From an uncultured bacterium (GTDB lineage: Bacteria > Patescibacteriota > CPR2 > UBA1875 > CAIMLA01), in assembly GCA_903842085.1 (NCBI GenBank), contig CAIMLA010000043.1, positions 1,563-65,562 of the forward strand: a DNA stretch of 64,000 nucleotides. Direction: 5' to 3'. This document shows positions 19,924 through 21,954 of the stretch, piece by piece (position 1 is the stretch's first letter; each line of letters begins with the position of its first letter). Under the pieces are notes generated by a model. That model made no database searches. It was not told the DNA's origin and saw only the letters and a list, made by a program, of their open reading frames with translations. The position numbers were made by a program, and so were the translations under genes.

Positions 19924-19951
19924 AAAAAAGGCCTGATCTGGGGCCTTTTTT
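19924..19951. terminator. Intrinsic terminator-like hairpin (A6-GGCC...GGCC-T6)
   Basis: AAAAAAGGCCTGATCTGGGGCCTTTTTT directly after the 19233 ORF stop. Confidence 0.55.
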
Positions 19952-19965
19952 GATATAATACATTC

Positions 19966-21954
19966 ATGGATAAGCCAAGACAAAAAAAATTAGAAAAAAG
20001 AGCGATTCAACTCCGAGGTTTAATTAATAAATATTCATACGAATACCACGTTATGGATCAGCCGTCTGTATCGGATGACATTTATGATTCTTTGAATAAT
20101 GAGCTTAAAGAGATCGAAGCAATTTTTCCACAACTGATCACGACTGATTCGCCAACCCAAAGAGTTGGAGGTAGGGCCTTAGAAAAATTTGAAAAGGTTG
20201 AGCATAGCAATCCAATGCTTTCGCTGAATGATGTTTTTAGCTTTGAAAAAATCAAGGAATGGGAAAAACGAATTATCAAAATATCTGGAGAAAATAAACT
20301 AGATTATTTTTGTGAACTCAAAATAGATGGTTTATCGGTTATGTTGACCTATGAAAATGGTTATTTGGCCAAGGGGGCGACTCGGGGAGATGGCAAAATT
20401 GGGGAAGATGTGACTCAAAACCTCAAAACTATTTCCTCTATCCCTCTTAAGCTAATAGGTGAAAACAATAACAGAATCGATGTCCGTGGTGAGATTTATA
20501 TGTCAAAAAAAGCCTTCGAAACAATAAATCAAAACCAAATTAAAAAAGGGCTACCAAGCTATGCTAATCCTCGAAATCTAGCGGCTGGAAGTATTAGACA
20601 GCTTGATCCAAAAATCACTGCCGAAAGAAAATTAGAATCATATGTTTACGATATCTACAATGACCCAATCATAAAAACTCACCAAGAAAAACATGAAAAA
20701 TTGGTAAAATGGGGCTTTAGAACAAGCCAGTATGTCAAGTATTGTCAAGATATTGAGGCGGTTATTGAATACTGCAAAGAATGGGATACCAAACGAAATA
20801 ACTTAGACTTTCAGGTTGATGGCATGGTTATTATTGTGAACAATAATCAGATTTTTGAAAAACTTGGATTTGTCGGGAAGGCTCCTCGGGGTGCAGTTGC
20901 TTATAAATTTTCTGCCGAAAAAGTGACAACTATAATTGAAGACATCCGAGTCAATGTTGGGAGAACGGGGGCAGTAACCCCTTATGCGGTCATGAACCCT
21001 GTCAAAATAGCTGGATCAACTGTTTCAAGGGCGACGCTTCACAATGAGGACGAAATCAGAAAAAAAGACATTCGAATTGGCGATACCGTTGTAATTCAAA
21101 AAGCCGGGGACATTATCCCTGAGGTAATTGAAGTAGTCGTTGGCCTGAGAACCGGCAACGAAAAAGAGTTTGTCATGCCGACCGTTTGCCCAGTTTGCGG
21201 TAGCAAAATAATTAAACCGACAGGAGAGGCAGTCAGACGATGTCTCAATAAAAATTGCTTTGCTATCGAAAAAGAGCAATTAATCCATTTTGCTTCAAAA
21301 GATGCTTTTGATATCGACGGCTTGGGCGAAAAGATTGTTGAACAACTTTTGAATGAAGGCTTGATCAGTGATATCGCAGACTTTTTCGCATTAGAAGCAG
21401 GAGACCTAGCAACTCTTGATCGATTTGCAGAAAAAAGGGCAGATAATCTCATTAAGGCCATCCAGAAAAAAAAGAAAGTCACCTTCAACCGCTTTCTATA
21501 TGCTCTTGGAATACGCCATGTCGGCAGTATCACGGCAACTCGATTAGCCACTGAATTCAATAATCTAGATCGGTTAAAGGAGGCTTCCCTTGAAGATTTA
21601 TTGGTTATCGATGATATTGGGGAAGTGGTCGCAAGGAGTCTTTACCATTGGTTTAGAGATCATCGGAATATTCGCTTGTTAGAAAAATTGTCTTTGCTTG
21701 GAGTCGGTTATGAAAAGATTAGAAAATCTAATAAATTAGAAGGCTTAACTTTTGTTATCACGGGCTCTTTGGTGAGAATGAGTCGAGAAGAGACCGAAGA
21801 GAGAATCCGTTTTCTTGGTGGAAAAGCAGCTGGATCGGTTTCAAAAGAGACAAATTATTTGATTCTAGGAAACGGGCCAGGATCAAAACTGGCCAAGGCA
21901 GAGAAGCTAGGCATAAAAATTATTTCAGAGGATGATCTCTTTAAGATGTTCTAA
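19966..21954 (+). CDS. ligA: NAD-dependent DNA ligase
   Basis: Adenylation motif CELKIDGLS (KxDG), OB fold, Zn-finger cysteines (CPVCGSK...C..C), HhH, and C-terminal BRCT. 662 aa. Confidence 0.92.

Follow-up and report, generated by a model that had tools for sequence, protein, structure and literature searches.

The question raised by this stretch of DNA is how translation begins at genes whose start codon lies only a few nucleotides (nt) downstream of a promoter -10 box. The window analyzed here is the whole stretch of 64,000 nt (positions 1,563 to 65,562 of the forward strand of contig CAIMLA010000043.1, from an uncultured bacterium of the Patescibacteriota); it has a GC content of 40% and seven tRNA genes, with coding nearly all on the + strand. 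An original prediction, made from the letters of the window, had singled out five genes (smc, a LysM-domain gene, ligA, rnhB, and gatC) in which a -10 box precedes the ATG by 6 to 10 nt without a Shine-Dalgarno (SD) sequence, and it had proposed that their mRNAs are probably leaderless (for gatC, possibly so). When read directly, all five motif and ATG coordinates were found to be correct, and Pfam matches back the gene identities (SMC_N, LysM, LigA domains, GatC, and RNase_HII). In our reading, for which ligA is the clearest case, the five genes carry sigma-70-type promoters set directly against the coding sequence (CDS), and their transcripts would start at the start codon or 3 to 4 nt before it. 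We put the probability of this reading at roughly three in four.

Start codons were refined for 46 window genes, and SD sequences were scored by the duplex energy of the 18 nt upstream with the anti-SD sequence, with -5.5 kcal/mol or stronger counted as an SD. At this threshold, 28/46 genes possess an SD (-5.5 to -12.1 kcal/mol), including six that start with GTG or TTG; the lineage clearly uses SD sequences for most of its genes. The five candidates gave duplex energies of +0.1 to +0.8 kcal/mol, bearing out the claim that they lack an SD, and all of them start with ATG. The examined orthologs of these genes also start with ATG throughout, except for a single GTG (rnhB of the relative L126). 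All five candidates are heads of transcription units (5/24 heads versus 0/22 internal genes), with upstream gaps of 42 to 830 nt, and G+C-rich terminator hairpins with T-runs immediately precede smc, ligA, and rnhB. Ten further SD-less genes either overlap the upstream gene, by up to 26 nt, or start no more than 8 nt after its stop codon, and are thus translationally coupled. Three more SD-less genes (uvrB, rplS, and trmD) have longer or unclear leaders.

LigA homologs, and then the contigs encoding them, led to close relatives. The best LigA homologs (69% identity) come from metagenome genomes of Patescibacteria, also known as the Candidate Phyla Radiation (CPR), and no record identical to the window LigA was present in the public protein collection. 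RnhB and TrmD proteins identical to those of the window are encoded on an NCBI/ENA contig, where the same ATGs are called. The comparison set consisted of the window and the syntenic loci of seven related genomes, with LigA proteins 62 to 69% identical; individual loci are referred to by L numbers. For ligA, the LysM gene, and gatC, eight genomes are the window plus these seven relatives. The three genomes used for rnhB are the window, L126, and L127, and those used for smc are L128, the window, and L129. Contig scans with LigA peptide patterns proved too general, as the relatives retrieved were only 35 to 53% identical, and were used as a heterogeneous background; the mixed background comprised 116 distant loci (1.65 Mb). 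An alternative genetic code with UGA as a sense codon was rejected: table-11 open reading frames (ORFs) yield full-length LigA, RnhB, and TrmD proteins that match homologs, and ligA of L120 stops at a TGA.

The ligA gene begins 52 nt downstream of the preceding gene, and a terminator, a promoter, and the start codon all fit within that distance:

19924..19951, + strand (readable on both strands): terminator hairpin that ends the upstream gene; fold of -15.1 kcal/mol, z = -3.25; terminator-like in the scan
19951..19959, + strand: extended -10 element TGATATAAT of ligA, read directly; TGnTATAAT in 8/8 genomes
19966..21954, + strand: ligA CDS; ATG 6 nt after the -10 box; Pfam LigA domains

All eight genomes have TGnTATAAT, exactly 6 nt, and then ATG at ligA, and in 7/8 a hairpin with a T-run precedes the box. 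Mean pairwise identity is 0.92 across TGnTATAAT, where only the n varies, as against 0.36 in the 6-nt spacer and 0.42 in codons 2 to 11. The T-run of the window terminator extends into the TG of the promoter, while the -35 position (19931-19936, GCCTGA) falls inside the terminator stem and matches the consensus at only 1/6 positions. The TG extension is probably invariant because the stem of the upstream gene's terminator takes the -35 position, leaving a promoter that would rely on TGn. Counted from the end of the box, the A of the start codon is the 7th nt, with a C before it, which makes A19966 the predicted +1 of a leaderless mRNA.

This geometry presupposes that the start codons are assigned correctly. 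If the true starts were instead TTG or GTG codons upstream (674, 17258, and 21958) or a codon downstream with an SD (GTG 32077), the boxes would be coding sequence or part of a 5' untranslated region. For ligA, ATG 19966 is the first start codon past an in-frame TGA at 19951 (-15). No upstream start is possible for ligA or rnhB, because both ORFs begin at these ATGs. The next in-frame start of ligA downstream, at codon 29, was rejected, as it lies past R12, L16, and Y27, which are invariant or nearly so. Moreover, a TATAAT read as Tyr-Asn codons should show synonymous variation, and none is seen in eight genomes.

The arrangement at rnhB is as follows:

31948..31971, + strand: terminator hairpin after rplS; fold of -11.2 kcal/mol, z = -5.9; found by the scan, also in L126 and L127
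32002..32007, + strand: -10 box TATAAT of rnhB, read directly
32014..32634, + strand: rnhB CDS; first start codon of the ORF; 206 amino acids; ATG at the predicted +1

TATAAT, 6 nt, and a start codon are found at rnhB in 3/3 genomes, and the GTG of the L126 ortholog occupies the same position as the ATG of the others. A downstream start with an SD does exist here: GTG 32077 has a GGAG 8 nt upstream (-6.6 kcal/mol), which would speak for misassignment. This codon was nevertheless rejected on the conservation of the residues that precede it, since residues 6 to 18 (P[ST]L..E..LW..G) are shared among 24 homologs.

In relatives, a UPF0102/NERD-like gene (~117 amino acids) stands between rnhB and nusA. 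The window has only a 183-nt gap at this place (32635-32817), which suggests loss of the gene. The gap holds the nusA promoter TTGACA-17-TATAAT (32731-32759), a leader hairpin with a T-run (~32770-32800), and then an SD and the nusA start at ATG 32818. This leader (window 32731-32817) is a possible attenuator, and L127 has a similar hairpin with a T-run.

At the remaining three genes, the distance from box to start codon is slightly longer:

668..692, + strand: terminator hairpin after rnc; -11.4 kcal/mol; contains TTG 674
698..703, + strand: -10 box TACAAT of smc, read directly; 9 nt before the ATG
713..3907, + strand: smc CDS; predicted transcription start site (TSS) G710, 3-nt leader
17261..17266, + strand: -10 box TATAAT of the LysM gene, read directly; 9 nt before the ATG; an invariant TG abuts the box
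17276..17749, + strand: CDS of the LysM-domain protein; predicted TSS G17273, 3-nt leader
21958..21963, + strand: -35 hexamer TTGGCT of the gatC promoter; 4/6 matches; TTGGCT-17-TATACT with TG found by the scan
21978..21986, + strand: extended -10 element TGATATACT of gatC; TGnTATACT invariant in 8/8 genomes
21997..22290, + strand: gatC CDS; Pfam GatC; predicted TSS G21993 (C at -1), SD-less 4-nt leader

The smc box reads TACAAT in 3/3 genomes, with spacers of 8 nt (L128), 9 nt (window), and 10 nt (L129). At the LysM gene, TGTATAAT is invariant in 8/8 genomes, the spacer being 9 nt in six genomes and 7 nt and 6 nt in the others, and a purine occupies the 7th nt after the box in 8/8. The -35 hexamer of the gatC promoter, TTGG[CT]T with 17-nt spacing, is retained in five genomes: the window, L117, L118, L120, and L123. 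Between box and ATG, gatC has a 10-nt spacer in the window as well as in L117 and L118, a 12-nt spacer in L120 and L123, and one of 21 to 23 nt in L122, L124, and L125. The original prediction had described the -10 boxes as extended throughout, which has to be narrowed. The TGn is in register at ligA and gatC (8/8 genomes each), whereas the TG directly abuts the hexamer, out of the extended register, at smc (TTG-TACAAT) and at the LysM gene (TTG-TATAAT in the window), and no TG precedes the hexamer at window rnhB (TAG-TATAAT).

The ORFs of these three genes do run upstream of the ATG, and gene callers picked upstream starts in some relatives; both facts would fit misassigned starts. The upstream in-frame codons that the original prediction had listed as a possible alternative were, however, each rejected. 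TTG 674, the longest smc start in the ORF listing, lies inside the terminator stem-loop, and the smc N terminus (M[YF]LK[KR]LEIYGFKSFG) is conserved from ATG 713, with position 1 of the Pfam SMC_N profile aligned to residue 2 of the product. The LysM gene has only two start candidates within its first 50 codons, and the upstream one, TTG 17258, runs into an in-frame TGA in L120 and stands in a different frame in L117. TTG 21958 of gatC is the conserved -35 hexamer itself; an in-frame TAA follows it in L117, and it is out of frame in L120. Misassignment of these starts is, in our view, very improbable.

At 40% GC, the AT-rich intergenic DNA of a genome often contains hexamers resembling TATAAT, and the boxes could in principle be chance matches. 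A loose box (at least 5/6 matches) at a spacer of 5 to 10 nt was found at 5 to 6 of the 46 genes, a count that is unremarkable (P = 0.28) given that 7.7% of trials with shuffled upstream regions produced such a box. An AATAAT located 7 nt from the start of rpsJ (62193) is probably a match of this kind; rpsJ was rejected as a candidate because its AATAAT lies 8 nt past the tuf stop, a case of coupling plus chance. The exact hexamer behaves differently, with TATAAT at a spacer of 5 to 10 nt in 3/46 genes versus 0.4 expected from shuffled upstream regions (P = 0.007), and chance would not confine 5/5 candidates to the heads of transcription units. Taken alone, the window provides modest support for the promoters proposed here.

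Comparison across genomes bears more heavily on chance. In the 232 kb formed by the window and its seven relatives, the distance from an exact TATAAT to the nearest ATG of a long ORF peaks at 6 nt (n = 12) and 9 nt (n = 6), with a second group at 19 to 20 nt that represents short SD-led leaders. Six control hexamers of the same composition gave flat distance distributions, without a spacer peak. At the sites with a 6-nt spacer, -1 is a pyrimidine and the 7th nt after the box is the purine of the start codon in 12/12 cases; over all sites, the 7th nt is a purine at 31/33. Boxes and spacing are kept at orthologous loci even though the LigA proteins are only 62 to 69% identical, so these are not near-identical strains. 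An independent case is provided by uvrC. Where a small inserted ORF sets this gene apart from uvrA, the gene has gained a start region with the order hairpin, TGTTATAAT, 6 nt, and ATG in L124 and TATAAT, 10 nt, and ATG in L125. It is this comparative evidence that we take to be decisive for the proposed promoters, and an origin of the boxes by chance is scarcely credible.

A different explanation would keep the starts but dispense with the promoters. The transcripts would have leaders, arising by read-through or from another promoter, and initiation would be independent of the SD, with the TATAAT region acting as an unstructured or S1-binding initiation region. SD-less translation on leadered or polycistronic mRNA does occur in the window, at uvrB, rplS, trmD, and the ten coupled genes, and the position of ligA just 52 nt after its upstream gene would suit read-through. 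In L122, L124, and L125, gatC has SD-less leaders of 15 to 17 nt, so short leaders in this clade can also initiate translation independently of an SD. An A/U-rich enhancer, however, has no need of TGnTATAAT base for base at a fixed distance of 6 nt in eight genomes beside a spacer that is 36% identical. Strong terminator hairpins also separate the upstream genes from the boxes, and a pyrimidine at -1 with a purine at +1 (12/12 sites) is a feature of transcription start, not of translation. Finally, the same -10 consensus accompanies a proper -35 at canonical promoters of the window, namely TTGACA/TTGACT-17-TATAAT at nusA (12/12 matches), rplS, and a divergent tRNA operon, evidence that this lineage follows the standard sigma-70 consensus. 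Leadered transcripts therefore strike us as an unlikely explanation for the five genes.

The canonical promoter of the six-tRNA operon (17198-17226, - strand; TTGACT-17-TATAAT, 11/12 matches) is divergent from the promoter of the LysM gene. Its -35 hexamer, AGTCAA on the + strand, is kept in 6/7 relatives.

Returning to promoters set directly against the CDS, we infer that transcription starts at these boxes and that the resulting mRNAs are translated by a leaderless pathway. With 6 nt between hexamer and ATG, the A of the ligA and rnhB start codons falls on the 7th base, where +1 usually lies, and a pyrimidine precedes it; these mRNAs would have no leader at all. At smc, the LysM gene, and gatC, the gap is 9 to 10 nt, and a start at the purine conserved at the 7th base would give leaders of 3 to 4 nt, too short for an SD. 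The 5'-terminal AUG would be recognized directly, presumably by 70S ribosomes or initiator-tRNA complexes, in place of SD/anti-SD pairing. Most of the remaining window genes follow ordinary SD-led initiation or translational coupling. The predicted +1 was claimed to fall at the ATG or within a few nt of it, and all predictions that can be read at the sequence level hold, exactly at ligA and rnhB and with leaders of 3 to 4 nt at the other genes. Similarly, the proposal of two initiation classes agrees with the presence of about 5/24 leaderless-type transcription-unit heads beside 28 SD-led genes. We suggest that ligA and rnhB should be regarded as geometrically exact leaderless genes, and smc, the LysM gene, and gatC as borderline cases within the usual definition of 0 to 5 nt.

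Several observations weigh against this assignment, in addition to the unremarkable count of loose boxes. With spacers of 9 to 10 nt, 3/5 genes (smc, the LysM gene, and gatC) do not qualify as leaderless in the strict sense. Mycobacteria appear to use start codons at +2 to +5 less efficiently than those at +1 (PMC4633059); thus, these three genes are perhaps translated less well or differently. In the window, rnhB and the LysM gene have neither a recognizable -35 nor an in-register TG, and in some relatives the gatC leaders range from 6 to 17 nt. Lastly, the pooled count over 232 kb consists largely of orthologs of a few genes and not of many independent genes; what it gauges is therefore conservation.

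Patescibacteria are an uncultured radiation with small genomes, whose ribosomes lack several proteins and rRNA segments. In the mixed background, a peak at a spacer of 6 nt was again present (18 cases). The locus L036 ("Candidatus Saccharibacteria" bacterium RGIG2340) has four long ORFs with TGnTATAAT-N6-ATG within 19.6 kb, at 189, 13705, and 17147 (+ strand) and 5940 (- strand), which suggests the same leaderless architecture in another class of Patescibacteria. The background peak and the L036 cases indicate that the phenomenon is widespread. A broader proposal is that leaderless initiation is conserved, selected, and fairly frequent across Patescibacteria, at about one-fifth of transcription units, in compact modules of terminator, TGnTATAAT, 6 nt, and AUG that would hold intergenic DNA down to ~50 nt in bacteria whose ribosomes are reduced. 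We advance this proposal tentatively, as one that could fall on either side and leans slightly toward being too broad.

If transcript mapping confirms these starts, the known leaderless class would be extended to Patescibacteria, and ligA and rnhB would become conserved test cases for how reduced ribosomes start on 5'-terminal AUGs. There is also a consequence for annotation, as gene callers without a leaderless model over-extend such genes across their own promoter. Four cases were found: the ligA call of L117 runs 12 codons too far upstream (10001-10036), a TTG call over-extended by 8 codons hides the rnhB box of L127 (10001-10024), and the calls for the LysM gene of L123 and gatC of L118 are over-extended by 6 codons (459-476) and 13 codons (11989-12027), respectively, each across its -10 box. 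Were the broader proposal true, N-terminal over-extension would be systematic in CPR annotations.

Other genes of the window were considered as leaderless candidates and rejected. The genes at 14685, 18315, 22297, 24974, 26981, 38013, and 44091 are coupled to or overlap the upstream gene, and the gene at 5800 is coupled, starting 2 nt after a short ferredoxin gene (5619-5797). For trmD (4891), no -10 box was found at a consistent distance in three genomes. A perfect hairpin, GGAGCCAC-N3/4-GTGGCTCC (-15.6 kcal/mol; window 4858-4890), lies 10 to 19 nt before the trmD ATG in the window, L128, and L129. The upstream region in these three genomes showed no SD and no proper T-run, and an A/T-rich stretch follows the hairpin. 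The hairpin may serve in processing or regulation, or it may be a weak terminator inside the rpsP-KH-trmD cluster. At uvrB (window 6487-6524), TATAAT is followed by an SD-less leader of 29 nt; in L128 and L129, an SD-like GGAG(A/G)G lies 21 to 27 nt from the ATG beside a hairpin, an unusual initiation region.

Two further places in the window stand apart from the genes discussed above. After rplC, a 350-nt gap occurs where rplD is expected, followed by an ORF from ATG 63486 (MDNISGSVNS...); a TATAAT at 63444 precedes this ORF by an SD-less leader of 36 nt (63444-63488). Between murB and a penicillin-binding-protein gene lies a GC-rich island (39000-39650) with 57 to 66% GC in 200-nt windows, compared with 40% for the window, at a place where relatives have a Pur_DNA_glyco gene. 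Its three overlapping ORFs (39018-39305 and 39226-39714 on the + strand and 39079-39624 on the - strand) had no Pfam match, and the island had no Rfam match at an E value of ≤1; foreign DNA and an undescribed RNA are possible explanations.

Leaderless initiation itself is well established. The classical leaderless mRNAs of Escherichia coli, phage lambda cI mRNA from PRM and Tn1721 tetR, start at the A of the AUG and need no SD (cited in PMC4633059). Both are single examples, carried by mobile elements, in a host with poor translation of leaderless mRNAs, whereas the genes described here are conserved chromosomal housekeeping genes. Within the paper collection searched, nothing tied leaderless mRNAs to Patescibacteria, CPR, or Saccharibacteria. 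The anti-SD motif was reported to be lost only in a subgroup of Parcubacteria in a study of CPR ribosomes (PMC9297842), and the one CPR TSS set that turned up in the literature is that of Nanosynbacter lyticus (listed in PMC12641261). The starts described here appear to be of a known kind, with no new mechanism, and only the lineage appears new.

Three known systems offer close parallels. The first is group C of GeneMarkS-2 (Lomsadze et al. 2018, PMC6028130), in which a Pribnow box lies 6 to 8 nt from the first genes in operons and a dual model includes SD sites; it was described mainly from Actinobacteria and Deinococcus-Thermus, with 25 to 50% of operons leaderless. As in group C, the window has a Pribnow box near first genes, no ribosome-binding site there, and SD sites at other genes of the same genome. 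The host, in contrast, is a 40% GC Patescibacterium, and the frequency is about 5/24 transcription-unit heads in one 64-kb window. The second parallel is with TA-led genes. Zheng et al. (2011, PMC3160421) described a TANNNT signal ~10 to 12 bp upstream of the start, which in low-GC Lactococcus takes the form of TAtAAT with a TG peak; in the TA-led genes of Lactococcus lactis, this TG peak before the box substitutes for a -35. The architecture of ligA and gatC is that of TA-led genes of low-GC Firmicutes such as L. lactis. That study drew on genome-level statistics and did not include CPR, whereas here the phylum is another and the arrangement at individual orthologs (ligA and rnhB) is conserved across deep divergence.

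The third parallel is with the leaderless transcripts of mycobacteria (Shell et al. 2015, PMC4633059; Cortes et al. 2013). There, either a -10 hexamer or an SD is found upstream of a start codon, never both, and an ATG or GTG at +1 is necessary and sufficient for leaderless initiation (PMC4633059). The present genes share this exclusivity of box and SD, the ATG or GTG at the predicted +1, and the conservation among orthologs. The mycobacterial cases were mapped by TSS determination, ribosome profiling, and reporters, while the present ones are predicted from sequence. The boxes differ as well: the mycobacterial -10 is TAnnnT in high-GC DNA, whereas the Patescibacterial genes described here have the full TATAAT.

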